Part shown: one piece after another, positions 9,496 to 41,624 of the stretch
Position numbering within the stretch: the stretch's first letter is position 1
How the letters are laid out: every line of letters begins with the position of its first letter
The notes under the pieces: generated by a model
Seen by the model: the letters and a program-made list of their open reading frames with translations, nothing else
Databases searched by the model: none
Told to the model about the DNA's origin: nothing
Source of the DNA: Pseudovirgaria hyperparasitica
Lineage: Eukaryota
Length of the DNA: 64,000 nucleotides
Assembly: GCA_010093815.1 (NCBI GenBank)
Contig: ML996568.1
Strand: one strand, 5' to 3'
Position numbers and translations under genes: made by a program

Positions 9496-12443
9496 GAAAG
9501 GAGGACACAATCTAGGTAGCTGCCTAGACTAGTAGATTCCATACTCATGACCCCCCAACACCCCACATCCCACGCTCTACGCCACATTTATACGAGCCAC
9601 ACGCCACACGCCACACGCCACACACCGTACGCCACATCCCACGCACCCCCAAAGGGTTCCCGCGTGGCCAAAAGCCCGAGTCAGTTTGCCCCAGTCTCGC
9701 GAGTCATATTCCAGTCCCACGTGTTCTTAGTACAGTCAAGGGATTAAAGCATAGTATCTCCAGCATATATACTACACATACCAATATATAGAGATGTTTA
9801 ATATCACTCATCTTACAGATTCCATAACAACTCTCTCTGGAGTATCTCTATTAACATATAAGCTTAGTAGATTGATAGTCTTAGTAGGCATCCTTTCCGG
9901 CGCTACTACAGTTCTAGATCGGTACATAGCGCCTACCCTCCAGCCAATCAGCTGCCGTCCATCAACCCTGAATGCCAAAAGCCTCATTTCACTGCCCTTG
10001 CTTCACATCACTACTTGAACCATTCATCCACTCACGTGTCTTTCCATCCTCATCTTTGTTTGTGAGCTTCAAGTGGTGGGTAGTAATTAGCCTTGGTAGG
10101 TATGAAGATGGCCTGCCGTCATCTATTACCGGCAACTCAGGCCGGCTGGGTGGGTGCGACGGTAACGTGGTACAAACGGGGAAGACTCCCTCAACCTGCC
10201 CATCTCCCATTCCACCTCACCACCACACCACCACACCACTCTTCAGCTCTCGTCATCCATACCAGCCCTAGAGCGCTTCATCGCTCTCATTCTGGACTTT
10301 CCCGTCATTTCCAGCCTCCATTCTGCATCTCCTCTCCTCAACTGCCTCGGCTCACTCTCTCCCTCTCCCCCCTCTCCCCGTCTATACCGTCATGTTGATA
10401 TCTCTTCACATGGCAGGATACTTGACAATCTGCAGTCTGGAAGCTGCTTGGCTACCAGACTCTGCCTCCTCGGAATAAGTTATCATGCTTCATGCCTTGC
10501 CTACCATCACTAATTTCTCGTCAGCTATGTGTCCGACACTGTGGTTACTCCCGCAAAGAATGCTTGTATCCATGCCCTGTTTGGAGCATGCCGATTCGAC
10601 TCTTGAGCCCTTAAAAGGCCCTTCGTGAGCCTATCAAATTCTTCTCCTCGCCTTCATTTTGCCAGACATGTAGTGTCTACCTCCACGAGACCTTCATTTC
10701 TGTATCGCCTCGCTCTTGTGAGATTCGCTCTCCTTCCACCTCCCGCAGCGTTGCTCTGTACCGTTCACTGCTCCAGCTCGCTTGGTCCTTGTTCTCTTTC
10801 TGTTCCGATGCAGCATTCACCATGCCGACCGCCTATACAACCCTTTTGAGCTCTTATATTACTCCAACAGTTTTTGGGCCAATATCAAAAACTTTCTACT
10901 CCATTTCGTACCCGCGACGTCACCGCTACTTATCCTCACTGCGCCACCCTTCTGTTGCGCCTACAGCGTGGTGCTACACCCCTTGCTTCATGGCTGACTT
11001 TTGCGGTAATAGCTGCACACCGGCCAGAAGGAGATGCCTACGTTACGCCGTACCTCGTGGTATGCAGGGCTGTCCGTTCGACTACTGCACCGATTCTGTC
11101 CGCGATCTTGTCAAGCGATTTCTTTGCATATCAGCATTGCTGCCCTTGAATTTCCTGTCTCTTCCTGTCAATTAATATTGACCACACCTTTCCTTCTCTC
11201 TTTTGCCTACTATCTTCTGCTCCACCATCAGCCGTCATCAGCTCGCTATCCCTACCTTTCGTGTGCCTGTATAGTCAACTATACCTCCTTATACCCTCCT
11301 TGTCCACCAGACTACCCGGCATTCTTCTTTCTGTGAAGACTCACACGCGGCAGCCTTAGCGCACTCCTTCAATAGCCTATTCTCAATAGCTTCTCTGAAT
11401 GCTCACCGCAACCTCATTAACTCTACTCAGGGAGCTTCGTCTCCGACTGAGACCGCATTCTCTTCACGCTGCGATCTCGTCAACTATATTCAGCTCGCTT
11501 CAAGTGTTTATGAAGACTACTCAGAGCACTAGCGAAGACGATCCATTTCCACTCGTACATCTCCTTCGTCTTTTCATACCTTTTTCTTTCTTTTTTGTCT
11601 TTCCCACGGCCCAGCTATCGACAAAGTTGTTGCCTGGACCACACTGGCTATCCATTTTTGTGCCCTCTGAGTACTACGGAAAGATTCACGTATCCAAACA
11701 AGGCAGGCGTTTGAAGGCCACTTCTACGTCATCAGCACTACACGTCCGCAGTGCCGACAGAGAATAAGCCCATCCAAGCAAGTCTCTTTGATCGCGAAGA
11801 CCCAGCCACAGACGGAAACTGTGCGACGTGGGCCTCAGTTGTGCATATATGTCAACCCACCATTTCCGCATTCGGTTCTAAGAACGCTTTTCCTTTCGAG
11901 GCATCTCCAAGCATCTACACGCATTTATCATCATATATCAGACATCTCAGTTCATCTTTTACTTGCAAAACGTACGCAGAGCCGTGCTCAATATTTATTC
12001 AACCACACAAGTAAGTCAACACCATACATTCCTTGGCATATGTCGATTCACTAGCTCGCTCGCGCAACGCACGTACCGGCCCCAGCTGCCCTACTTCGGC
12101 GACCACCCCGGACCCACCAGAGTGGTAGAAGTGGGTCGGTCGCGAGAATGAACATGTCCATAACGACGACACAACCGCGTTTTGTGCCGCTGCCTGGTAC
12201 TGTTCTTCTCCAAGAAACATCACGTCAATATTGTGATGTTGTGGTCGTTGTTGTGACTCTGCTGCGCACAACTATCGTGGAATCGTAACGCTGGGGGCAT
12301 GCATCTGTTTTTGGATCGTGTTCTTCTTTCTTTGCTCCCTTGCTACTCGCATAACATGTATCGTTTTCATTCTCTACCTTTTCCTACCTTTCTGTTCCTC
12401 TTTCTTTTCCCGCGTCGCGTCTTTCAGGACCTGCTTTATTGAC

Positions 12444-24600: not shown

Positions 24601-27600
24601 ATGGCGAGCGGGCTGACCGGAGCTCCATTGCGCGTTGGCGATGGCTTTAACTGGTATGCACACGGCAGACGTGTATTGCACGCAATAATCACTAATTACC
24701 CACAGGATTTATTTCGTCGAGCTTCTTGTCTGCGCAGTGCTGACCATATTCTTCCTCTTCTACTTCAATCGGCTCTTTGGGACCATCGTTTCCTACGCTA
24801 TACGAGCTTTCACCTGGCACAAATACCAAGCGTACATCGACATACAGTCCCTACAGATCTCCTTACTAGCGGGTCGCATCTTCTTCAAGGACATTCGTTA
24901 CCACGCGCACAATCAGACCATTCTGGTACACGGTGGCTACATCACCTGGCAATACTGGTTGCGTACTGTTCAAGATACGGATGTCTTCGACCCCAGTCCA
25001 CACAGAGGTGGCCGAGGCAGGTCTGCGAGTTCCAGTCGCGCAGGAAGCCAGAGTAGGAGCCGAAGCGTGGACAGGGAGGAGAAAGCAGGTAGCCAAGAAA
25101 CGAAAAAGCTGCCATACCGTATCACTGTCAAGGTGTCCGGACTTGAAGCTTTTATCTATAATCGCAGTCCGGTATACGATTCGATACTGGCCAACATAAC
25201 AAAGAAACGCGAACATGGTCAGACAGCAAATGCCCCAAAAAGGTCGCAAGAAGACGAGATGCTGTCTCAGTTTATTTCCGAGACCTCGCGGGCCTCGCGG
25301 GATCACCGTCCGGGTCATGAAAAAGAGATGTCGGGCTACCCCGCTGGCTATGCGTCTCATCCAGAAGAGGACATTCTCAGGCAGCCGAATCCCCCACCTT
25401 CGTTCTTAAGGTTATTTCCTATTCACGTCGATTGTAATAAGGGAGCCGTTGCTCTCGGCAACGAGAATACAACCTCTGTCCTGACTGCACAGTTCGAGAA
25501 GGCGAGTGGAGAGTTTAGTGCTACCCACTCCGGTCCCCTTGATGTTTATCGGCAGCTCTTCAATTTCGAATTCATACATCCGGTCGTTCATATGCGCAAG
25601 AATCATGATTTCAAATCCCTTCAGCTCGCCACCGCAGCACGTTTGAAAAAGAACGCCGAGGATGGAGAGTTATCAGACAAGACCTTGAATCCCCATCAAG
25701 AAGACTCAAAACGGAAATGGCGCCCATGGAATCCTTTTGCTACGCTTTGGAACACGTCGACCGAATCTATCAAGATGATCGCGAGCAAGCATGGACAGTT
25801 CCAAGCAGGTCAGCCTTCCTTTCCCGGCCAGGAGCGCTGGCAAGGATTATCGAGATATGTACATGATAGCCAGAATGATGAGCATGATGAGTGGGATGGA
25901 GTAGAATATGGTAAAACTTCCCTCATCGCAGACGTCCCTCGGCTCCGAATGAGCTTTTATTGGGACGTACCTGGTCCTGTGTCAACGAAAACGGATCCAC
26001 CAGATTCTGGGATGTCTTCTGAGAATATTAATGGAGATTTACCTCCTGCGTACGGTATGGACCTGCAAGTATATGGCGGTACGATCAACTATGGTCCCTG
26101 GGCCGACAGGCAGCGCATCAATCTGCAGAACATATTCTTTCCAGCCAATCATGTTGACGCCATTCCAGCCACACCCCTCTCAAAGGGCCAGACTCGCGCT
26201 TCCACGATATTCAAACTTTTCATCAGTATCGAGCAGGATACTACGATACGCATTCCTATGCGTGAGGCTTCGAAAGATTGGAAATGGAAAGGCAAGGCCA
26301 GCGATATCCTCGGAGGCGACAAAAATGACCACAAAGACACGCTTCGCTCTAGAATACGACCTGGGCGCAATAAAAATGACAAAGGGGCCGGTGCTACTGT
26401 CCGACCTTTCGCTTGGCTTGACGTCAAGGTTCTGGGAAACACCACTGTCAATTACGATATGGATATGTTTGCCCGGAATGATGGCTATCGTAACCTTCTT
26501 GATGTTGACTTCAGTGGTACTGAGATCTCATCAAGTGTGAATCACGGCTTATTGTGGAGGACAGGGCAAGTCACGGTCAGCTCGAACATGTCGAACCCAC
26601 TGGTATGGAATAAACTTCGGAAATGGACGTTTGAAATCAAAATCAACGATCTTGACCTCTTTATTCTTCGAGATCACCTATTTTTGATAACAGATCTTAT
26701 AACAGATTGGAGTTCTGGACCGCCACCTGACTACTTCACATTCACCCCTATGCAGTACCTTCTCACAATTGACTTCAATCGCTTCAAGATGTACCTCAAT
26801 ACCAATGACTCAAACATCGTCAACAACCCGTCGGAACTCGAGGAAAACAATTTTGTCATCCTGTTTGGCAGACAACTGCATGGTGAAGTCACCATCCCCC
26901 TAGACCGCTTTTGTCCTGCTCAAAGTGAAATACCGTTCGACGTGAAAGGCCAAGATCTTGGCTTGGATCTCTCCATGTCCCCACGCAATACTCTGCACAC
27001 ATTTGTGCGCTCGCCTCACGTGGCACGCTTGGGCAATATCAGGATGCGTGGAAGCCACAGTTACTTTACCACAACTGCACCCAACCTTACTGATAGATTG
27101 CACTTTGATATAGACGGTTCCAACTTCTCTCTTACATTATATGGATTTCTCATTCGGCAATTGCTGGTCCTCAAAGAAAACTATTTCGGTGAAGACCTAC
27201 ACTTTAAAACTCTGGAAGAGTATCAGAGTCTGCAGCCAGGTGGCCTAGGCACTGGTGACCAGCCTGAAGATCAAAACGGACGTCATAATAAATCCAACGA
27301 CTTGGATGTCATACTTTGCATCACTGCGAGCGAATGTAATGCACTCTTACCGTCCAACATCTACTCCGCAGACCATGGCATTCGAGTGGATTTACCCTAC
27401 GCATCTGCCGATCTTCGTTTCACCAATTATTACATGGATTTGGAGACGAACTTCAGTCCTCTGAGTGTATCTCTTGGGAACATACCTACGGATCCCGATG
27501 GGCCTGCAGAAAATAGTGGCCAAACTGAAATATTCATCGACTCTGCCAGTATAGTCGGACACCGGCTCTTTGGTCTACCTCCGACTGAGCCGACTTACGT

Positions 27601-30600
27601 CTGCAACTGGGACTTCACCGTCGGTGAGACCATAGGCGAATGCTCAGTTGAGTTCCTCGATGAGCTTGCTAGCAGTGCGCAAGGCTTTGCATTTTCATTA
27701 GACGATTACGAGAATGCTTTGCCAGTGCTTAATCCCATAGAACTCCATGACGTCACATTTCTGCGCCTTAATACTTCGCTGATACGAATCTGGCTTCATA
27801 TCGGGCAAGAAGCATTGCTGATTAGCTGTGAGCCAGTGAAACTCGATTTCAACGATTGGGCGGGAAAACATTTCTCTCAACGCCTCAACGTACAAGTTCC
27901 CAAGTTAGTTATCGCGTGTGCAGATGCTAGCACAACCTCACGACATCGCACTTCCGATGGCCACCGTCAAAGTGTCATGACGCATGCATACTTAGACACG
28001 TCGATATCTCTAAGCATGGTCCGGCGCAAATTGGGATTCACAGCAGATCGACAGCTTCAACAAGATCATATTTACGAGCATGACAAGCGTACGAAACGCA
28101 CGGATTTCCTGCTTATTAACAACCATGCTGATTTGGCTCGGAGCAAGTCGATAAACAACACTCAGACCCCTGCATTGATATTCCCTCCAATGCCTCTGCC
28201 TGTTGGCGTCCAGATTGACTCCATGTCCACGAGCAGCCTACGGACACCGACTCAGTATGAGGCTTCTATCAAGGGTAGCATTCAGATGCAGAGAAACATG
28301 CCCACCGCTACCTTGTCTCGTTCATCTACTGAGAACTTACCTGATTGGCGCAAGCAACCATCAACAACAACAATGGTCTCTTCCAAAGGCGGTTGTTCAG
28401 ACGACTGGGTGAGCTCGATGACTACCGATCATCAGCTTGAGGGACAACCATGGCTTCCTGCGTCCATTGCATTGACCAGTTCCTTGGCTCCACCATACTT
28501 TCCGATGCACCAAATTGAACTCGACCTGGCTGACGTAGATCCTCTACCTGTACTCGAAACCCATCATGCAAATGAGACGCAAATTTCAGGGAAGATACAA
28601 ACGCCCGATGCCACGTATGACTTGGACGAAGACATGGTCCATACCAGTTTCGTTGTTAGCACAGGCCAAGGGATCCGCATATTCTGTACTCCTAAAGCGA
28701 TCTCAGTGGTAGCCAGCATACTCGAGCACATCCTTCCGAAGAATCCAGACTCAATCCTCGATGCTCTTCAAGTGTCGACTTTGTCAACAATACTAGACTC
28801 AAACAAGCGAGATGAGGGTAAAGGAAAGTCTAATGAAGTTAGCATCAGTGTACCGCAAATTCATGTGAGACTCTGTAACGAATCTTCCGTACGAACTGAC
28901 TATGGCGCCCACATGGAGACGGATCAATACGACATGTACATCAGAAACCCTCATCTTCTCCTGCGGAGCAAGTCCTTCCCGAGATACGAGGCTGTCCCCG
29001 AAGTGAAGCGATCTCTTTCTGTTCATGCAACGTTTTCGGTCTTCGACCTCTCCATTCGCCAGAAACAGAGCGGCATTGAATCAGACGACGTGGCCGTGTC
29101 TGCGCGTGTCAATGATTTCCTGCTTTGGATATCTCAAGCTAGGACCAACTCAATCAACGTAACTGTTAAGTGTTGCGAGATTGCTAATGCTAGTAAACAG
29201 ATCAACTACCTAGCATCATTGATACATCGCACTGCAGTCCTTGCCACAGAGGTCGAAAAGATATTCTCAGACCTCGCTAGCAATTGGCAAAGTCGACTTC
29301 GATACATGGTTTATTACCTAAGTAACCGCGGGAAAGACGTACCCGATCCTACTTTCCTCACCCGAGCTTCTTATGTCGGGCGGGTCGGTCCCGATCATCT
29401 TCGCAATTCAGATTCGTGGAAGATTCTATCGCGGCTCCGCTTTATCCTACAGAACTTAAGTCACAATGATTATGATCAACTATCATCTGCTTGTCGCGAT
29501 CAAGAGTTCATCTACCCCGAGGACTCACCACATGAGATTATATCCCTTTGGGACCAGTGGAGAGCTTGGGATCTGAAATCAGTCAAGAAGAGTCTCGTTA
29601 TGCAAAAGCTTTACGGTCCCTTCCAGGACGTTACTGTGTTGGACGAAGCTGCCGAGCTGCCTCTATATATCAACGTTAAAGCCGCCATCATCAAGGCAAT
29701 CATCGATCCGGGACCTAAACAAACAGACTTTTCAACTCAGCTCTTCTCTGCAGCAGTGAGATCCGACCCGCCGCCTCCCCCTTCGGGTCTGCATCTCGTA
29801 GAGCAAGAGTCGCGCAAAACAACCATCCAATTAAGCTCGAGAAACATGATGCTCAAGGTTAATTGGGAGGTTTGCGAACTTATAGAGAAGTTATTGACGA
29901 TGTTCAAAAACAGCAGTGCACGAAACCCCCAAAAAGAAACACGGGTCGTCTTAGGGCCCCCTAATCCCGGGCCGTCGAAGGCGACCAAAAGCCGTCATGA
30001 TTTTCATCTGGTATACGCCACAGAAATCGCTAGCATTGAGATGGACTGCATCAATGTCATGTTGACATGCGCATCTCAGGATGTCAAAATCTCACTAGCT
30101 GGGTACAAGGGTACGGAGTCCAATCAAGGTGTATTCGTCAGCGCCGTTGCCTCCGCCGATAATTCAGGGGCGCACCTTCGGTCACGTTCACGACTGCTTC
30201 TTCGCACCGAAGCTGAGTTCCCTTCCATCTACATATCTCACCACGGAAATCGCGAGACAGTGGACGAACTACGTATTATCGGTGCTTGTAAAGTCGCTGC
30301 CATTGAACTGACAGAGGAGATCCTTGGGCTGTTCGAAGTCGCGGATGCTGTATTAGTCGACGAAGCTGCCTTCGTGTTCCAGCAGATTCAGAAATTCCCG
30401 ACAGATAATAAGGAGCAGTCGAAACTTGATCAACGACGCTCGAACATTCCTAAATTAACTATTGCACTGCTGATGGACACATACTACATCGACGTCACTA
30501 TTCTCCCCACTCTGTCATATTCAATCGCAGGCGGTATAGGCCGCGTCTCCGTTTCTCCGCGCGTTGATAAGGAGCTAGACCTCACCGTAGAGTTTGATTT

Positions 30601-33600
30601 GAATGGCCACAAGCACAGCTTTTACAACAAGGAGACTAGTGAGTCGACAATAATCACTTCACTGGATATTCCTGCAGTCAATGGCCGCCTCAAGATAACG
30701 CAAGACGACGATATAACAAAACTGAGTTTGATCAGCACTTTAGACATGGTTACCTTCGAAGCTTCCTCAATCCATGGCCTACTGAACATTGCCAAAGACC
30801 CCGAAATGTCTCGCCTTACACACGCAATTCAAGAAGACGCTGAAGTGTTACGAGGTCACTTCAAGGAGATCTTTCCCAAAGAGAAAGATACTTATACCGT
30901 CAAGGCTCCAAAATCAGGGTCTTTCATCTACTATGTGAAGCTGACCATGGCCGGGCTACAAATTGTCGCCAATGCTCCTACACAGTATGCCATTTCTACC
31001 ACTGCAGCACTCGTGATAGGCATGGAGGACATGCAATTAAACGTGTCGAACATCTCTGCAAAGGATAGTCTCATTCTCGTTCTACCAGACGTGGCAGCTG
31101 ACGTGAGGCGAGTGGGTGTCAGTCTAGCGCTCTCCAACGAAGAGATTTGCCAACGCTCGGGCAATGTCACACTTGGTGTCAATATTCGAGTCACTTCCGC
31201 TGATCCCTCAAATATAAATGCGAAGCGTGTCATTCGTGTTTCCAGTTCAAATCTTGATGTCAACATCTATGCCGAAACGGCCTCGGCTATGGTGGATGTC
31301 ATGAACCATCTTCAGGATAGGCTCAAAGACATCGATCTGTCGCGACAGAGGAAGTACTTCCGACGACTACATCGATCAAAATTTCCACGATCCTCCTCCG
31401 CCATCATCGCAACGTCGGCTCAGGAAGAAGGGGAAGAGCGAGTCAAAACCGCCGGCGTGTTCACGTCGACTTATTCTCTCGAGCTGAACGAAATTCAGGT
31501 CAGTTGGGTAGTGGGACATTCTTCGCCGAGATATGGAAACCGAGAGCCTGAGGATCTCGTTCTCTCATTTCGACGGATAGATCTGTCAACAAGGGCCGAG
31601 GACAAGGCTCGGCTAATGATTGAAGACATGCAACTTCAAATGGTCCCTCCATCATTTGGGAAGAAAAAGCGGTCCTTGAACTCAGCCCTGCTTCCCGAGG
31701 TCGTATTCAACGTCGCCTACAGCTCATCTCAAGATGCCCGCAAACTTGCATTCCAAGCAGCTGGAAAGTCCCTGGATCTTCAATTAGAATCGAAGTTTAT
31801 CATCCCAGCAAAATGCCTGCACCAGTCTATAACACTGGCGACCGAAAAATTTCGAGCAGCAACTTCTAGCTGGCAGAAGACGCCCACCGTCAGCGGAGCG
31901 GAGCGCAAGAACCCCTTCGGTAACAAACGCTTGTCATCACTCCTAGTAGATGCCGACTTCGCTGGTGCAGTGGTCCATCTCCGAGCCGCTTCATACCAGG
32001 AACACCAGTCACCACAAGCTCATGCACGAGAAAATCCTGGGCAGCAAAAGGGCAAATATGGCCAATTTGTGACAGAGGACTCAGCAGCTAGCACGTCACT
32101 CCGGGCCCCCGGTGTTGCGCTCAAAGCAGAGTTCACCGACGACGGTGGGAAGCATCCGTCACTGAATGTTGAACTCAAAGTCGATGCTTCCAATAATGCG
32201 CTCTACCCTAGTGTAGTGCCTTTAATCGTTGACATATCAAATGCGGTCAAGCAGGTTGTGCAGGACAAAGACAACGATGGCGCAAAGGAGAACGTTTTGG
32301 GAAAGGCAAAGCCAGCTGGATCGAAATTGATCGATGAGGAAAGCCTCATGAATGTGGATCCCAGTACATATCTAGGGAAGACTCGCCTGAACTTTGGCTT
32401 TCGTATTTGCAGACAAGAGTTTAGCCTCAGCTGCCAACCTATTGCACGTGTAGCAGCCTCCGCACGACTTGACGAGATTTACATGACCATGAGCAGTGTG
32501 AAAACGAAAGACCATGGCCACTTCTTCGCCATTACTGGCGCATTTGAGAAATTGCAAGCCTCTGTTCAACATGTTTATTCGAAAGAGTCGACCTTCAGTT
32601 TCAAAGTCGATTCGGTCCATCTGTCAGTGATGAACAGTAAACATCTGAGTGGCAGGTCAGGAGTATCGGCAATTCTGAAAATAAATCCCACCCGGACACA
32701 GATCAATGCGCGACAATTACAGGACTTTCTACTCTTTCGCGAGATATGGGTGCCACCAGAAATTCGACAAGAGGCTCACCAAACACCTTCAGCTCCGTCC
32801 ACCGAACCTCAAGAGTATCTGGTTCAGCGCTATCACCAGGTCGCATCTGCCGCTGCATTCCCATGGAACGCTACCTTTGCCATCGCTGAGATGGCAGTCG
32901 AACTTGACCTAGGTCAAGCAATAGGGAAGTCATCACTTACCATCTCTAATATGTGGGCGTCATCCAAAAAGAACTCAGATTGGGAACAGAACCTTTGCAT
33001 TGGGGTGGATAGAGTCGGAATCAAATCAACGGGCAGAATGAACGGCAACGTCGACTTGACAAACGTCAAGGTGCGTACGTCGATCCGCTGGCCCGAACAG
33101 CAGGAGGCACCTCGTCAAACTCCATTCATTCAAGCTTCTGCTGGCTTCGGAAGGTTGAACGCCAAGATTGGATTCGATTATCAAGTGTTCGCCGTTGCCG
33201 ACATATCTGACTTTGAGTTTCTTATGTATAATGTACGCCAGGGCGTAGAGCGAGATCGCCTTGTTGCTATCCTGGACGGTGATAGGGTCCAAGTATTCCT
33301 GACATCAACGAGCTCAGCCCAAGTCGTCGCATTATATCAAGCTATTCAACGCCTGGTTCAGGAGAACCAATCTGCTTACGAGCAGTCTCTAAAGGATATC
33401 GAGCGTTTCCTACGGCGAAAGTCCGCAGTCTTGCCAGGACCATTGCTTGCTCCGCAAGCGCCGAGCTCATCTGAGGAAGAACATAATGCCGATAACGCGC
33501 CTAAAGCCCCTATCTCGCTAGGAACCGACGTAGTTGTGACATTGAAGAAACTCACGTTTGGCGCCTTTCCGAGCTCTTTGACAGACAGCCAAGTCCTTAG

Positions 33601-34312
33601 TCTCGAAGCTTCCGACACGCAGGCTCGTTTCGCTACTGCACTCACCGAAGATCCCCTCAAAGGTGCCCAAGTTCATAGCGTCCTAGGTCTGACTCTCGGT
33701 CGCCTCAGCGTTGCCCTCGCTGCCATCGCACAGACTTCGAAGAAGGATACGCCTGTCGACATCACGGTCGAGTACATCGTCAACAGCGTCGCTGGTGCTC
33801 GCGGCGGCACTATTTTGCGCGTCCCTAAAGTCCTCGCTACTATGCAGACCTGGCAGATCCCTAACACGAATACCATCGAATACCAGTTCAAATCCTCTTT
33901 TGAAGGCAAAGTCGACGTAGGCTGGAACTATTCGCGGATAAGCTATATCCGTAATATGTGGAGTGCACACACGCGTGCCTTGGCATCACGACTTGGTAAG
34001 CCATTGCCGGAACCAGCTGTAAAGATATCGGCACCAAAGGAAAGACCAGAAACAGCGCAAGATCGCGAGAAAGCGAAAATCACAGCCGTCGTGGACGTTC
34101 CACAGAGCAGATACGAGTATGCACCGCTAGGCGAAGTGGTTATCGAGACACCTCAATTGAGGGATATGGGCGAGGCGACACCTCCGCTGGAATGGATTGG
34201 ACTACATCGTGATCGGCTACCCAATGTGACCCATCAAATTGTTATTGTGCCGTTATTGGAGATTGCGAGAGAGGTGGAGGATGCGTATCAAAGGATCTTG
34301 GGGACGAGTTGA
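24601..34312 (+). CDS. CSF1: Csf1, bridge-like lipid transfer protein (BLTP1/KIAA1109 family), ~3200 aa; exons 24601-24653, 24706-34312
   Basis: 'FNW|IYFVELLVCAVLTIFFLFYFNRLFG...QISLLAGRIFFK', 'NYGPWADRQR', 'ENYFGE..HFKTLEEY', C-terminal 'PQLRDMGEATPPLEWIGLHRDRLP'. Intron 24654-24705 links ATG 24601 to the 3191-aa ORF. Confidence 0.95.
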
Positions 34313-35792
34313 CGGCATGCATAAGTGCACGTATGCATGATGTTTAGTAATGACCAATGTGCTCAATATTGATAGGTAGTATTGACTCTAGGGATCTGTA
34401 TCCTGTAATTCCTCGACCAATAAAGAGGGTACAATGAGCTATTCGGCGTTATACTTTACGCGAGGTCTCCCAAAATATCTTTATAGGTCTGTCTATTACC
34501 AAAAAGCTTCTCTTCATCCTTTAGACGGCAGGTTATACTTGGATCCATTACTAGGTATAGATCCTTTTTAAAAGAATCTTTCTCCGGAAACGAGCACTGA
34601 CAGAAAGGCCAAGACCTTGCCCCACTGACAAGTAGATATTTTTGTCTACTTCCTGACTCGGGTTTCATGTAGTGCTGACTTGCCGGAATTCTGATCCGTA
34701 CTTGAAGGATGTTTCAGGCAGGGTAAAGCACGTGGCGCATGCCATTAGTGGTGGTACGATTTGCGATCTTGTTCTGCCAGAGAAAACCCTGCGCAATGTC
34801 ATCGCCAACTGAAGCATCACTTGTCTAGAACATGATTCTCCTAGCACCCTCTTGTATGCGCGTCCTAGCTTAGAGCTCTTCATATCTAAATAATGCTTAG
34901 AAATGAGCAGATAAGGAGACTGAGAATGGTTCAGATGCTCTTGATAGAGACTGAATTAAAGTTTTGAAGAGTTGAAAACCATATAGCAGTGTTCGCCTTA
35001 TTTTATTCTATGAATCGATATCGAGCTAATCATGTAGAGACTTATATAGAGGTAGATCGGTCCAGTAAGCGTTAGGAAGACCGTTACCTGCACAGTCCGG
35101 TGCCAAAGGTTTGAGGTTCCGGGGAAGTCCATGGATGGGTCCACCTGCACTGCACGGGTGCGTGACTGATAGCGGTACCTCTTGGCGTGTTTGACAGCTA
35201 GACTTATTATTTTTAAAATGGTAACAGGGGGTGATAGAAATCCGCGACCACCTAACATAGACTAATTTATAGCGTGTAGAAGTGCCCTTCTTATGGTGGG
35301 GTGCTTTACGTCGCTCGCATCAGGGATTAGTGCGCTAATGTTACTGCCCTATAGTTGTGATTGAGGACATGTTATTACTAGTTATATATAGAGATGACAT
35401 TTTATAGGGTGTGGGCACAGACTTTGTCAGCCCCTGTAATGGCATGGATCCGCGACTGGCCACGACTTCTTCTCGGACATGGCAGGAATCTTTTAAGACA
35501 CTGAGCTTAACCTTTGCACATACAGTAACAAGAAAATTCACTCATGATTCTACTGCTTTCACGGACCAAAGAGGATCAAGTTTCGCTCGTGCTTCTTTAC
35601 CACGATCTTCTTATGAAATACGGGTCTGAGGTGAATTTTGGCTAAAGGATTATAGCATATCGGCGTGGCCTATACATTTTCGCACGATATATAGGGCCGA
35701 TAGAAGATGTTTTGAATCAGCAATGTAATATATAGTATACCACTTCTCTGTTTCTTTCCTCCAGACATCGTCTCATTTCCGCTACGATCAAC

Positions 35793-37038
35793 ATGGTGTC
35801 TTTGAAATTCACCCTTTTGGCTTGTATGCTATTTGCCCAGTCTTTAGGTCGGAGATACGAGTTTCCGTCACAGGACACTGCTAGACCGATGACTCAACCA
35901 GATGAACCACCACCAGAACCACGACGATCAATGATTAGGTATTCCACCGATCACACTTGTAACCGACGGATAGCCGCAGGTGCGGCTATTAGAGAGGCGA
36001 TTCTCATGGCGAAAAAAGCCTGGATCCGCCTAGAGAATTGGAGCATGAATCCACAGTCCGATGACTACGACATCGCGAGTCTCTTCAGGAATATCTTTAA
36101 AAGGGACTCCAGAGAAGATTCGGCTTCGGTTCACCGGGTTCTTGAGGCCCTGTATGGTGTTGCCACCGCTCAGTATACGGCACACGAGGAAGCAAACACA
36201 CATTTCTACTGCGACAACGATGATCGCTGGAAGCTTGCTAAGGATCGGCAAGAGTGGCAAAACGGTCGACGGCCATCGAACTGGCCACCAGCCATGGTCC
36301 CAAACTCTAGAGCGCGAGAGGTTGATCAAGTATGGCACGATATGTCCGCTGAAAATCAGATCAGGGTCGGAGCTGTAAGACTCCCCCTATTCAGTACAAG
36401 GGGCAAGCCCCTCTGTAAGGACCCTTTGCTCATGGAAGACGGTATATTTAAATGGGGCAAGGCGTACCACTCGAACGAGCATTACCGCACGCCAGGTAGA
36501 CGTTGGGCCACCACCATCACCCTTTGCTCGCCAATGATCAATTCTAGAATTTCGACGATAGCTGCAGATAGGAGCCGGGACTGGACGAAATTCTCGCTTA
36601 AGTACCAATTCGATAGGGAAAAGTTATATTATAGAAGAACACTGCCCGAGGACATGTTCGGGAGCGGAGAGCTGTCGGCTTATGCTAGTGTGGTAGCGCT
36701 GATTCAATTTTTGAGAGTGGGCGGCATTGGACGTAAGTTGCACCGACTTGACTCTATGTAAAATGAACGCTTATAGATTGTCGTTAGTGGCGCATGTGGG
36801 GTATACGTGGGAGAGTGTCATTTCAACTGGCCCGGATTCGGCCATTGAATATGCGGAGCACTATGGTACATATTCCCCGTGTGATCCAGCTTTCACAAGA
36901 TACTGACAAGAATGTCTAGCATACTTCGCCGCACTTGCATACATGGGATACATGGGATACAAGCTTGATGACCGTAATGGAGCCAGTGAGGGTAAACTGC
37001 TTAGAACGGATTATCGTCCCCCCGCGAATCGCCTATGA
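35793..37038 (+). CDS. Secreted protein with a zincin/M35 (deuterolysin-like) layout but no HExxH motif; exons 35793-36732, 36788-36865, 36920-37038
   Basis: Signal peptide MVSLKFTLLACMLFAQSLG; 'AIREAILMAKKA', 'FYCDNDDRW', 'TITLC'. Two GT-AG introns extend the ORF to '...SAIEYAEHYAYFAALAY...NRL*'. The fold assignment is from motif resemblance only. Confidence 0.7.
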
Positions 37039-37584
37039 ATCAGGCAGTCACAGTAAAGCACACAGCTCATGAGGCGATTAGGACGGGGCAGGTTCCTGCA
37101 CTAGACACAGACACTATAGTTTTAGACAACAGAAATTCTGTGTATGAAGTGAAAAGGACAGGGCGTCCCGGTTCAGAAAGGTTAACTTGAAATTATGGTT
37201 TTCAGATCGAAAAGTGCACCAAAGTGCACTTCATTAATATTGATCTATAATTCCATATTGATGCAAAGAAAACACCCTCTTTTCCGTGTAATAGCCTGAA
37301 GCACAAGCACGTCTATAGAGAGAGAAGAATTGCTTCACGCGTATAATATTCTAGAGTCAGTTGGGACCACAAATATAGGACTCTCCAGAATGCATTTCGG
37401 AATTTTTGGTTCATTATCCGGACCAGCGCAGAGCGGGCGAATGCTTTCGCCTTTTAAAATGTTACCAACTACTGATTGAGCATGGATGTAAGCTCGTAGG
37501 AGACCCCGAGAGATGATAATCTAGCATTGTATAGACTATATGCTGTGTGCATGTGCGATCTCTACGCATAATTGAAATCTAAAG

Positions 37585-37726
37585 GACTAGAAAGGGGGGT
37601 ATTCTTGGCTTTCTCGATGAACACGAGAGCCAACGCCCTTCCCTGAGCGGAACAAAACACTAGAAGACTGGAAAGGGGGGTATTCTTGGTCGTAGCAGCG
37701 CTACAAACCAACGCCCTTCCCTCAGC
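37585..37726 (-). repeat. Two direct-repeat hairpin units (37585-37648 and 37666-37726) downstream of xanA
   Basis: Shared arms GACT(A/G)GAAAGGGGGGTATTCTTGG and CCAACGCCCTTCCCT(G/C)AGC flank different self-complementary cores. Confidence 0.9.
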
Positions 37727-37828
37727 AAATCGAAAGACGTTCCGAGTCCACCATTCTCGCCCACTACTAGAAGTCTATCATAACTGACATGAACCCAAGG
37801 AGAATTTTGTAGGGATGAGGGCAACATC

Positions 37829-38938
37829 TCAAGCGCCAAGAGGTGCTGCACTTGCGGCAAGGTTACACTGCCTGAAAACGCGCACTTCATCCTCCTTGAA
37901 CGCACCCACGACACTGTGCAGACAGCCATGATTATTGAAGATGACCATATCTCCTTCTTCCCAGTCATGCGCGTATACCAGTTCTGGTGCAATGCCCGGT
38001 CGCTGAAGAAGATACACTATGTCTCTCACCTCCCGTAGCTCATCCATCACAGTCCCATCTGCAAGATGCAGTTTCCGCACTGCCGATGGGTGCACTTGCA
38101 GTGCCAAACGCCCAGTAACGGGGTTCTTCCACACCATGGGCAGGACCTGGATCTTGCTCTCGTCGACCGGTGGGAGTTGGTCCAGCGAGAGCTCTTTGCC
38201 TTCAGACACAAGTCCGAGGCCCGTGGAGCGGCTACGCGCGCTGCTCATCCAGACATACGGGTGTGGCGCATACTCCACTTTCGTCGTGCGGGCGAATGCC
38301 TTGTCGTCGTCCGACAGGATGTCGTACATGGTGTATCCCGAGACAAAAGCCGTCGTGCCGAGCGGGACGGTCAGTTCATCGCCTGTCCCGTCGTCGTAGC
38401 GCAGCGTCTGCGTGCGACCCTCTGGCACGCGAACAGCCATGAGGGTAGTGGCGCGTGGAGGGTTGAGGTCGTAGAGTGCGGCGTCGATGTGCCATCTGTA
38501 AAACCTCGTGAAGTGTTCGTCTTCCTCGGCGGGGATGCGCGTTGCGTGAAATGTGGCGTGATGTGGGTGCTTCAGTTTGATGTCGGTCAAGCCCTCGAAG
38601 CTGTCGAGATGGCCATTTCCGATGACTTGTACCTGCGGCTGGTGTGGGATTGTTTTGAGATCAGGATGCAGGATAGATTTCTTGGTGTCGAGCGTTTTGC
38701 CATGACCGTAGGAGGTAGAGGCGGGGTCGAAGCGGTTTGTGAGGGCGTACTGCGCGGCAGGCGTGCAGGCGGCTTGGTCTTTGACAACAATCACAGTATA
38801 CTCGTACAGCGCGGCACGGAGATGCTGGAATTCGATATCATTGAGTTTGTTGAGGTCGACGCCGGTGACTATAGCACCAAAGCTGCGGCCGTCGGTAGGG
38901 GGAAGAGGTGTGACCTTAATGTTAGACGCGACGGTCAT
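37829..38938 (-). CDS. xanA: Alpha-ketoglutarate-dependent xanthine dioxygenase XanA (369 aa, intronless)
   Basis: 'SILHPDLKTIPHQPQVQVIGNG', 'LKHPHH..FH', 'TRFYRWHIDAALYDLNPP', 'RYDDGTGDEL.VPLGTTAFVSG', 'YAPHPYVWM', 'LHSVVGAF', 'QCNLA' are XanA-family motifs. Confidence 0.93.
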   Translation of the reverse strand: MTVASNIKVTPLPPTDGRSFGAIVTGVDLNKLNDIEFQHLRAALYEYTVIVVKDQAACTPAAQYALTNRFDPASTSYGHGKTLDTKKSILHPDLKTIPHQPQVQVIGNGHLDSFEGLTDIKLKHPHHATFHATRIPAEEDEHFTRFYRWHIDAALYDLNPPRATTLMAVRVPEGRTQTLRYDDGTGDELTVPLGTTAFVSGYTMYDILSDDDKAFARTTKVEYAPHPYVWMSSARSRSTGLGLVSEGKELSLDQLPPVDESKIQVLPMVWKNPVTGRLALQVHPSAVRKLHLADGTVMDELREVRDIVYLLQRPGIAPELVYAHDWEEGDMVIFNNHGCLHSVVGAFKEDEVRVFRQCNLAASAAPLGA

Positions 38939-39124
38939 GATGTATTATGGTCACCTTTTAGCTCAAGAGAGTAAGTAACTAGCAATCCGTTCAGATGGAT
39001 ATTGAATCTCTTCTCGATAACCCCATGTCTCTGGATGTGCAGAGAAATTTATACAAGGCCTCATGGAGTGCACGTGTGGCTCTGGTGGAGGTCTCCGAGA
39101 ACTGTCTCCATATATCTGTGGTTA

Positions 39125-39138
39125 GCGGAGGTCGCCGA
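39125..39138. promoter_or_regulatory. Putative UaY/PCO-1-type Zn2Cys6 site (CGG-N6-CCG) upstream of xanA
   Basis: GCGG-AGGTCG-CCGA, ~190 bp upstream of the xanA ATG; one mismatch to TCGG-N6-CCGA. GATA cores lie nearby. Confidence 0.55.
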
Positions 39139-39750
39139 CGACCACGGAAAATAAAGTGGCAAGATGGTTTCTTTTGACGTGCTTTATGACCTGAATAAAT
39201 AGATGTATACTCAAAATCATATCAGGCTAGTAATGACTGAGCTCTATTACCACGGTTGTAGGTTTGACAGTAATATTATGTATTGATCTTATCAGTAGAA
39301 AGTGAGTGCTATCAGATCGCGGCGTCTAATTGGCCACTTTAGCCCAAATAAGCATTTGTACGGCGCAAGATCTTCGTGAAAACTCTAAAGTGATTACGCT
39401 TTCACTAACGGTTGAATAACGATTATTTCAGAAATGACACTTAGATTTCATTAGCGCTTATTTTGTTATTAACGGTTAATTCGACTGCGTTCTCCTCATC
39501 AGTGTGATGTGCTATTCACCAAATAGTCGACAGGTTTGGATTCACAAATAATAAAAATTAAGTGGAAGGAGGAATCGAGGTAATTTGAATTAGACGTTCA
39601 TTATATGCAATACGTCTCTCAAACTCATACTCGTACAAAACACCAGCCATCGAATACCATCCATTCACTTCCCTACATGACGTCGTAGCGCATGGCGACC
39701 GTGATAACTCCATATCCCAATACAGTAACAAACGTTGCATTCTAAAATTG

Positions 39751-41624
39751 TCACCGATAGAGTCCTGGGCTCCTACCCTCCTCCGCAACCTTTCCACTGA
39801 CATCACGTCTTCTCCAGTTGCCTATCAATCCATTACCTGCTCCGAGACCTAGATCTCCATCAATATCCAGCCCAGTCCGACTAACAACTCTGGGGCTTCC
39901 CTCGTGGCCTCTACGCTCACTCATCTCTGGCTCGGGAGATCGACTTTGCTTAACGCCTGTCGTTCTTGGCGGTGTGCTACTGACAGGGCGCAGGTTCGCA
40001 GTTGCTGATCTCAGATCGCCGTAAAACTTGCGCTTCGGTGTAGATGCGCGACTGATTGAACTGACATCACTGATTGTACTGAGTGACGTTGGCTTGCGCA
40101 GTCTATGTTCTGGGACAGGGGGCGGAGTTGGTGGGTTCATACGCAGCGGCGCTGGGACGTCCATGTAGGATACTTCCTCATCTTCTGAGAATTCAATCGA
40201 GTCACGGCGATCATGATATGCTTGCTCTTGCAGAGCAGGTGCTTGCGAGGGGAGTTGTTGATGGCGCAGAGTTTCGTAGCCATCTGTCGGAGTTTCAATA
40301 TTGACGAACCAGTTATCGGTATGGAGCTCGGATTTGGGCCTGTTTGTGCTGGGGCGCTTTGCGGGGCTACTACGTTGGATATTGCCAGATGTAGATGCCA
40401 GGGTGTTGCGCTTTAGCATTGAGGGAAGGGTGTCGCGCGAGATATCGGTTGGAGCCTTGGAAGGTCGCGAGTACTGCGACGTGGAGTCTAGAGTAGAGTC
40501 GCGCTCACTGTCATTGTCGTCATCGACGTGTTGGACGTTTGCGCGTGAGGCGCGAGTGGATGGTGGTTGAGAGTAGATCTGGGCTTGCTTTGCGAGGTTG
40601 AGTCGAGAATGGCGAGGGGATGCGGGATTTTGAGCAGACAGGTTCGAAACAGAGCCGGCGCGAGTATCAAAGAAGGATACTGGGCGAGTTTCGGAGACCA
40701 ATGGATCGTATAATTGACTTTCCCGTGTAGATCCCTCCATTGAGACAGACATGGTAGATGCACTTGCGCGCTTCTCGTTAAGTGTCATGTCGGATGCATC
40801 CGAGCTCTTGTACTTGTGCTTGGTCGATCGTCTAGATGTCAGGTTGTCCTCCAACGGATTCATGTCAGGAGGCAGATCAGAGATCCTGCGGAAGATGATG
40901 ACTAGCCACACATCTAAGAAGAAAGAAACCAGATGCAGACCGGCGACGCTTATAGCTGTCAACCAAGTGGCTGTCAGCACCTTCATTGTGGCCTCATCGC
41001 TGCTGAAGTACGTTCTCCATCTGCCATCCGCTCCAACGTCTTTGACTCGGTTGTTGTTCGACATTAATGCGGTGAAGACGTAGAAGGGAACAAATCCGGC
41101 GTCTAGGACAAGGGCGAAGAAGTGGTACGAAGCTGAACTTGCTGGGGTACGTCCTTTCGCAGGTCTGAAGAGGTGGTAAACTGCATATGTTGTTACGGCG
41201 ATATCTGCGCCAGGCTATCACATGTAAGTCAAACTTCTTATTTGAATCCCCGTTTTCGACTTACGGGTATCCTGATAATCCATCCTTCAGTATCCGCGGT
41301 ACCTCGAATGCATATCGTACATATGAGTAGCCCGATTGCGCCAACTAGCTGTAGTTGACGAAGGAGAAGTTGGATCCAACGAACCCATTTGATGGCACTC
41401 TTTGTTCTTGGGTTCATTTGCTTCGCATCGGTGTTGCCATACGGTAGGACGAGGTAGCTATCGGGGTGCCTGTTGAAATTGATTAGTGGGCCTTCTTGCT
41501 TCTTTGCGCGTGGAGGAATTTCGCGGCTTGCGCGAGTAATAGCTTTTGGGTCAAAGCCATTGAACGGATCATGCTCGTTGTATCTGGGAGTAGCTTCATA
41601 TAGATAGGGCGGAGTGACAACCAT
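39751..41624 (-). CDS. Conserved fungal membrane protein (about 4 TM) with a long Ser/Pro/Arg-rich tail; exons 41624-41265, 41214-39751
   Basis: 'MVVTPPYLY..FDPKAITRAS..GPLINFNRHPDSY', hydrophobic helices, 'LPPDMNPLEDNLTSR', 'RDVSGKVAEEGR'. Intron GTAAGT..TAG 41264-41215 restores the frame. Confidence 0.85.

Follow-up and report, generated by a model that had tools for sequence, protein, structure and literature searches.

In this study we demonstrated that the 3' flank of a xanA-like gene carries a two-copy tandem repeat with a period of 81 bp, which has so far been found only in this lineage. The repeat lies within a 64-kb stretch of DNA (the window), where its heads, arms, cores and tails together occupy positions 37575-37736 on the minus strand. 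Each copy holds a unit of ~61 nt, and the two units, located on the minus strand 102-244 nt past the stop codon of the xanA-like ORF, are those that the initial annotation had placed 100-245 nt after the stop; their sequences, coordinates and spacing were confirmed. We propose, tentatively and with a probability of about 0.35, that the units represent a sequence-constrained hairpin module of the xanA 3' region, probably one that is bound by a protein.

The gene upstream of the units is a genuine gene of the xanthine dioxygenase type. The intronless ORF (37829-38938, minus strand; stop codon at 37829-37831) encodes 369 aa of the TauD/TfdA family (family match E = 3.9e-38), and several of its nearest relatives with a name carry, in the protein collection, the annotation alpha-ketoglutarate-dependent xanthine dioxygenase. 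In the accessible text of PMC5611559, XanA is given as a fungal xanthine dioxygenase. The window's own protein aside, the nearest relatives in the collection belong to the Pezizomycotina and show at most 74% identity; since nothing above this value was found, no closely related genome is represented. On the far side of the units lies a convergent orphan ORF of 322 aa (35793-36761, plus strand), which bounds the 1,067-bp spacer (36762-37828) that contains them. This ORF, the translation of which has a signal-peptide-like start, matched no Pfam family. Its single homologue, which is distant (36% identity), belongs to another ascomycete, and the collection also contains a version of the ORF product from the same genome with a length of 251 aa.

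The spacer contains no ORF with coding signs. A coding origin of the units was rejected, as the ORFs lying over them are just 33-110 aa long, lack such signs and, in the case of the 110-aa ORF, represent an out-of-frame overlap with xanA. We also rejected a tRNA or SINE origin (no tRNA gene was found within 35000-40000) and the context of a purine gene cluster, the window genes being ordinary or housekeeping ones (Csf1/BLTP1-like, MFS, RFC, Vps39, desaturase and orphan ORFs). The Csf1/BLTP1-like gene is a single, apparently intronless open frame of 3,191 codons (24737-34312, plus strand) for a predicted bridge lipid-transfer protein.

Unit A (37726->37666, minus strand) is composed of the 5' arm GCTGAGGGAAGGGCGTTGG, an 18-nt core (37690-37707) with the stem GTAGC/GCTAC and the loop GCU, and the 3' arm CCAAGAATACCCCCCTTTC followed by CAGTC. 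Unit B (37645->37585, minus strand, with a GCT prefix from 37648) has the 5' arm GCTCAGGGAAGGGCGTTGG, a 21-nt core (37609-37629) with the stem TCTCG/CGAGA, a 7-nt loop and an AA bulge, and the same 3' arm, CCAAGAATACCCCCCTTTC, followed by TAGTC. In a repeat search the arms were spaced 81 and 78 nt from start to start, the 3-nt difference being due to the unequal length of the cores (18 versus 21 nt). The 19-mer 3' arm occurs twice in the window when up to three mismatches are allowed (0.03 occurrences expected), and the 14-nt 5' arm GGGAAGGGCGTTGG has exactly two perfect occurrences; the other seven of its nine matches carry three mismatches, which is the chance level (4.61 expected). Each core, on the minus strand, was found once, and no further copy of arms or cores is present in the 64-kb window beyond the two units. 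A covariance model built from the units (R1) scored 91.1 bits for unit B and 88.9 bits for unit A, the next-best match in the window reaching 10 bits. Tandem Repeats Finder did not call the pair. A separate array of an 8-nt unit, GGCAGTCA, is present at 9443-9498 (~6-7 copies, judging from the coordinates).

A short motif, ACTAGAAG(A/T)CT or a close variant of it, occurs three times in the xanA 3' flank (37766-37776, 37659-37669 and 37579-37590). Two of these copies are found at the tails of the units, and the third (37766-37776, recorded without strand) stands alone, 107 nt from the next, with no hairpin unit adjoining it. This lone motif could be what is left of a third unit or, alternatively, an empty target site. 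The presence of a degenerate third unit between the stop codon and unit A was considered and rejected, as the alignment was unconvincing beyond the tail motif.

Each copy folds into one unbranched, imperfect hairpin of ~50 nt. The inner helix, in which UUGGY...RCCAA and an apical stem of 5 bp add up to 10-11 bp, is robust; it is followed by a conserved, asymmetric internal loop, in which CG lies opposite GAAUACCC (2 nt versus 8 nt), and by a weaker outer helix made of G and C runs. When the units were folded in a 451-nt context, the pair probability of the inner stems was 0.86-1.0 on the minus strand and 0.92-1.0 on the plus strand, with the exception of the unit B core on the latter (0.50). 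The outer-stem register given in the initial annotation received only 0.21-0.25 on the minus strand and 0.00-0.02 on the plus strand, because the G and C runs permit other registers. The stem architecture described there was upheld as regards the inner helices, the shared arms and the internal loop; the outer stem is only one of several possible registers.

On the minus strand the units reach minimum free energies of -23.0 (z -2.2) and -21.1 kcal/mol (z -2.5), and on the plus strand of -20.6 (z -1.5) and -21.3 kcal/mol (z -2.3). As these values are nearly equal, the strand preference is small. It had been argued that the outer-stem imperfections, G-U wobbles on the minus strand and A-C mismatches on the plus strand, point to the xanA transcript; this is true of one register, but it is not reflected in the folding energies. 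Folding, being so similar on both strands, does not establish which of them is the RNA strand.

For comparison, we collected 80 metagenomic loci with xanA relatives (248,996 nt in all), the best of 315 that were confirmed among 391 pattern matches; 62 of the 80 have at least 250 nt of 3' flank and were usable, and the relatives are distant (up to 74% protein identity). A search with R1 for homologues associated with xanA recovered the two units in the window alone and nothing credible in the 80 loci, where it gave three matches (E 0.11-0.9), none of them in a sense-strand 3' flank. Fuzzy searches revealed no locus among the 80 with both arms, blastn of the whole spacer against the loci produced noise (best E = 0.21), short arm motifs showed no enrichment in the 3' flanks of the xanA relatives, and a gapped two-arm pattern scan of JGI metagenome contigs yielded 0 matches. 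Failure to find the structure at orthologous loci, which the initial annotation had named as counting against its proposal, was indeed the outcome: the element is present in 0 of the 62 examined 3' flanks, all belonging to relatives with no more than 74% identity.

Two loci, L031 and L033, which appear to be one sequence seen in two metagenomes, carry at 2738-2757 (L031:2738-2757 and L033:2738-2757) the string CTCAGGGAAGGG-GG-CGTTGG, which corresponds to the 5' arm interrupted by two additional nucleotides and lies on the sense strand, ~190 nt past the stop codon. We rejected it as a case of conservation: there is no 3' arm, and the segment folds differently, pairing with an upstream CCAATG. 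The 12-mer concerned is among dozens of chance blastn matches (E = 13), and the likeness is probably due to chance. A 13-mer match in L074 was also discarded, as it is part of a C-rich, hairpin-free stretch of the opposite strand. Further downstream of the xanA relative, L031:2895-3100 (also present in L033) contains a long inverted repeat with ~50-nt arms, CTATCGCTATCGCAACTGTATCGTACAATAGG... and its complement, enclosing ~100 nt, which looks like a MITE.

The stability of the hairpins is not in itself informative. They rank in the top 1.8-4.0% among the 31,970 windows of 62 nt in the 64-kb window, in which at least 40 other places fold better. The best 62-nt hairpins in the 62 flanks of xanA relatives have a median of -18.7 kcal/mol, and in 11 of these flanks the hairpin is at least as stable as -23.0 kcal/mol, so a strong hairpin after xanA is nothing special. 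Unusual stability was for both these reasons abandoned as an argument.

Shuffled cores folded at least as well on the minus strand in 100 of 2000 trials for unit A and in 66 of 2000 for unit B, and chimeric cores reached -13.7 and -14.9 kcal/mol compared with -19.0 and -19.3 kcal/mol for the real ones (a loss of 4-5 kcal/mol). These figures bear out the earlier claim that the apical stems, unrelated in sequence, are each paired; the pairing of the cores is only moderately above chance. In the shared structure of the two units, 34/34 cells pair and three pairs change on both sides, namely the fifth closing pair (U-A -> C-G) and two pairs of the core; the sole difference in the outer stem is a change from G-C to G-U on the minus strand. 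A shuffle control, weak with two sequences, reached the observed values in 52 of 500 shuffles, and the covariation has no statistical force, because there are only two copies.

The unusual feature of the repeat is its mosaic conservation. The arms together with YAGTC are identical at 41 of 43 positions, the remaining head and tail spacers of the 81-nt repeat at 13 of 22 (0.31 is expected by composition, P = 0.005), and the cores, in their best ungapped match, at 7 of 18, which is the chance level. The difference between arms and spacers gives a Fisher p of 5e-4, and arms so alike would arise at the spacer rate with P = 7e-8, although these p and P values are generous, because the boundaries of the arms were drawn after the data had been seen. 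Judged from this alignment, the combination of fixed arms and loop, a replaced yet paired apex and half-diverged spacers is not like the uniform neutral decay of a duplication. Given arms at 41/43 next to spacers at 13/22, and cores that are unrelated yet paired, a module of RNA or DNA that is constrained by protein binding is still a plausible explanation.

According to the model that we propose, the arms and the internal loop would be held constant and the apical stem would be free to vary provided that pairing is kept, which is the pattern to be expected of a site read by sequence plus shape. It is for this reason that we take the pair as two candidate binding sites for one protein, situated on the xanA 3' UTR or on read-through RNA. 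The putative binder may be a protein that binds RNA or an enzyme of the RNase III type, and the putative sites would influence 3'-end formation or mRNA stability. We do not regard the pair as an aptamer that senses a metabolite. The duplicated protein- or ligand-binding RNA module suggested in the initial annotation is retained as to its hairpins, its conserved arms and the candidate role in protein binding, but not as to a purine-responsive (riboswitch) element.

The units resemble the general class of protein-bound stem-loops of eukaryotic 3' UTRs, which have sequence-specific internal loops and sequence-free apical stems and are sometimes arranged in tandem; they differ from that class in that no known recognition motif was recognised in them by eye. 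A K-turn, a Vts1/SRE loop, an Rnt1 AGNN loop, Puf sites and an IRE were all considered in this by-eye comparison, and none of them fits.

Alternatively, and this we consider possible if somewhat doubtful, the units might be copies of a small foldback repeat that is mobile and either resembles a MITE or originates from the 3' end of a Helitron. The units would then result from separate insertions or from local re-insertion, with their hairpins riding passively in the transcript, their arms being kept by the transposition machinery and their cores differing by subfamily. Conserved ends and a variable interior are the usual anatomy of MITE and foldback families, and arms identical at 41 of 43 positions around unrelated cores are what would be expected of two different family members. 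The lone third tail motif without a unit is like an empty target. The 3' end of a Helitron has a subterminal hairpin, then CTRR within about 10-20 nt, and then a host T; here, CTAG and then T come after each unit on the minus strand, 14 nt (unit B) and 22 nt (unit A) past the inner hairpin, which recalls such an end. In the accessible part of PMC3695323, MITEs are reported to insert preferentially in clusters, and PMC5611559, in the portion of its text available, cites a paper whose title places the xanA promoter of A. nidulans inside a helitron.

The likeness of the units to MITE and foldback elements and to Helitron 3' termini, which are likewise short sequences able to form hairpins, conserved at the ends and variable inside, and common in gene flanks and UTRs, has clear limits. 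No other copy of either arm exists in the 64 kb, which are repeat-poor and contain no transposase or Rep/helicase gene. The terminal inverted match is poor (8 bp with G-U wobbles plus 4-5 bp, with a 6-nt offset), no target-site duplication or other direct duplication flanks either unit, and the outermost parts of the repeat are the least conserved, which is the reverse of what is seen at transposon ends.

Sequencing runs provided additional information on the locus and on dispersed copies. The stretch is contained in four runs, none of them recorded as RNA, of which X1 and X2 are DNA-like, and X3 and X4, from one sample and one study, are of unrecorded kind. Both X1 and X2 hold it on a single 22,943-nt contig, identical over the stretch, and no other contig of either run aligned to it at 80% likeness or more (1 of 592,746 records in X1 and 1 of 180,325 in X2), with the aligner's sensitivity to 61-nt pieces being uncertain. 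This speaks weakly against near-identical dispersed copies and, to the same modest extent, against a mobile repeat; this DNA may itself have come from X1 and X2. In X3 and X4, single contigs of 2,639 and 2,104 nt span the xanA coding region and both units with no differences. They cover 37000-37828 and, by extrapolation from their sizes, extend down to ~36842 and ~36341. At the other side they end 7 and 41 nt upstream of the xanA start codon (ATG), whereas the contigs of the DNA runs X1 and X2 continue past these points. These early ends are at most a weak hint that X3 and X4 are RNA. The spacer (36762-37828), spanned in part by these two contigs of unrecorded kind, may hold a long 3' UTR or an unannotated transcript.

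It is also conceivable, albeit unlikely, that the repeat arose by neutral tandem duplication of a quasi-palindromic segment, the cores having been rewritten by template switching or fold-back repair, and that it has no function. As far as the accessible text of PMC8794818 (Monttinen and Loytynoja 2022) goes, template switching can make a perfect stem in a single event and can fix pairing in existing stems, so stems may become paired without selection. Because complementary halves would be made in one event, the pairing of the cores would need no selection. The earlier view that neutral duplication would not easily give paired cores is thus weakened by this neutral route, but the conserved arms are left unexplained by it. 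Several features would suit such an origin: both apical stems are short, perfect 5-bp inverted repeats, the arm junction without the cores reads TTGGCCAA, a palindrome, no other xanA flank that was examined contains the element, and its stability is unremarkable. However, if divergence were uniform and neutral, arms identical at 41/43 positions would not adjoin spacers with 13/22. Moreover, neither half of a core resembles the other unit (7/18 in the best ungapped match), so at least two complex events would be needed, and no donor sequence for either core was found in the window. The stems described in the available part of PMC8794818 share with the units perfect short inverted repeats and multi-base "compensatory" differences made in one event; they are located in established RNA genes, whereas the two copies present here permit no reconstruction of a donor or of the ancestral state.

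We regard as quite improbable the possibility that the units act at the level of DNA (as palindromic protein sites, a cruciform or a barrier between the convergent genes) or that they are a Dicer/RNase III small-RNA precursor giving rise to microRNA-like RNAs from the arms. The about equal folding of both strands, expected of a functional double-stranded palindrome, and the position between convergent genes are consistent with it. Paralogous microRNA-type hairpins show conserved arms with a diverged apex, as do the units, whose 3' arm has a length of 19-24 nt. On the other hand, large asymmetric internal loops are atypical of Dicer substrates, and the sites of the purine and nitrogen regulators (UaY, TCGG-N6-CCGA; GATA), taken as these consensus sequences, do not occur inside the units. 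We also rejected an H/ACA snoRNA. Such RNAs carry an H box in their hinge region and the triplet ACA at a distance of 3 nt from the 3' end, and each hairpin has a different guide pocket; here the internal loops are identical, the minus-strand spacer lacks ANANNA, and on the plus strand there is no ACA afterwards. The sole snoRNA-type match in Rfam, to the trypanosomatid TB8Cs4H2, reached 20.1 bits compared with a gathering score of 50.

The same TB8Cs4H2 match was the best of only five, all of them weak, obtained on 176 nt at E<=10, and none of the five is a riboswitch of any class, whether purine, xanthine (NMT1) or TPP. With cmscan on 1401 nt, Rfam 15 (4227 families) gave at the same threshold no purine, xanthine or TPP riboswitch and only ROSE_2 (E = 8.6); the NMT1 (xanthine-I) family is presumably included in this release. 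Neither the three-way junction of the guanine/adenine purine riboswitch nor the TPP riboswitch was matched on either 1401 or 176 nt, and the units are single unbranched hairpins. Conservation of an aptamer across species in the xanA context was not seen in the 80 distant loci (up to 74% identity).

These results make it extremely improbable that the units are tandem aptamers of a lineage-specific fungal riboswitch that senses purine, xanthine or urate from the xanA 3' UTR and whose outline is convergent with NMT1. What had made the idea attractive was the presence, beside the gene of an alpha-ketoglutarate-dependent purine dioxygenase, of a hairpin whose asymmetric internal loop is conserved and whose apical stem varies. 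This outline resembles the bacterial NMT1 motif of Proteobacteria, which, in the accessible parts of PMC7373994 and PMC8266621, is a rod-like hairpin with a highly conserved internal junction and variable distal helices, linked to dioxygenase genes of purine oxidation; adjacent NMT1 copies occur in one species, and the units are likewise adjacent. The architecture is nevertheless different: according to the same portions of these papers, NMT1 has the layout P1-J1-P2a-J2-P2b, with a large junction, conserved bases on both junction strands and a second junction, J2, and lies in 5' leaders, whereas the units have one junction (a loop of 2 nt versus 8 nt), lie 3' of the gene and not in its leader, and are known from one fungal genome. 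The purine-responsive element of the initial annotation, which we abandon, is not supported in view of this difference together with the Rfam results and the absence of the element from the 62 flanks and of its pattern from the JGI metagenomes. As far as the available text of PMC5882874 shows, TPP is the only riboswitch class reported from fungi, and a literature search joining xanA, xanthine dioxygenase and UTR found no paper.

To conclude, an outcome in favour of a mobile element, neutral origin or constraint would be of local interest, and only a riboswitch, extremely improbable as it is, would change the field. Should a foldback repeat or template switching turn out to account for the units, they would serve as a caution that paralogous hairpins with "swapped" stems can mimic covariation without selection on RNA structure. 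If the arms are truly constrained, as assumed in the protein-binding model that we prefer, the pair would exert post-transcriptional control on a purine-catabolism mRNA as an element that is young and arose within one lineage; to our knowledge, accounts of how fungi regulate purine catabolism are limited to transcription. The pair would likewise offer a clean natural case, at a single locus, of evolution in which the sequence of the loop is fixed and the apical stem is free.
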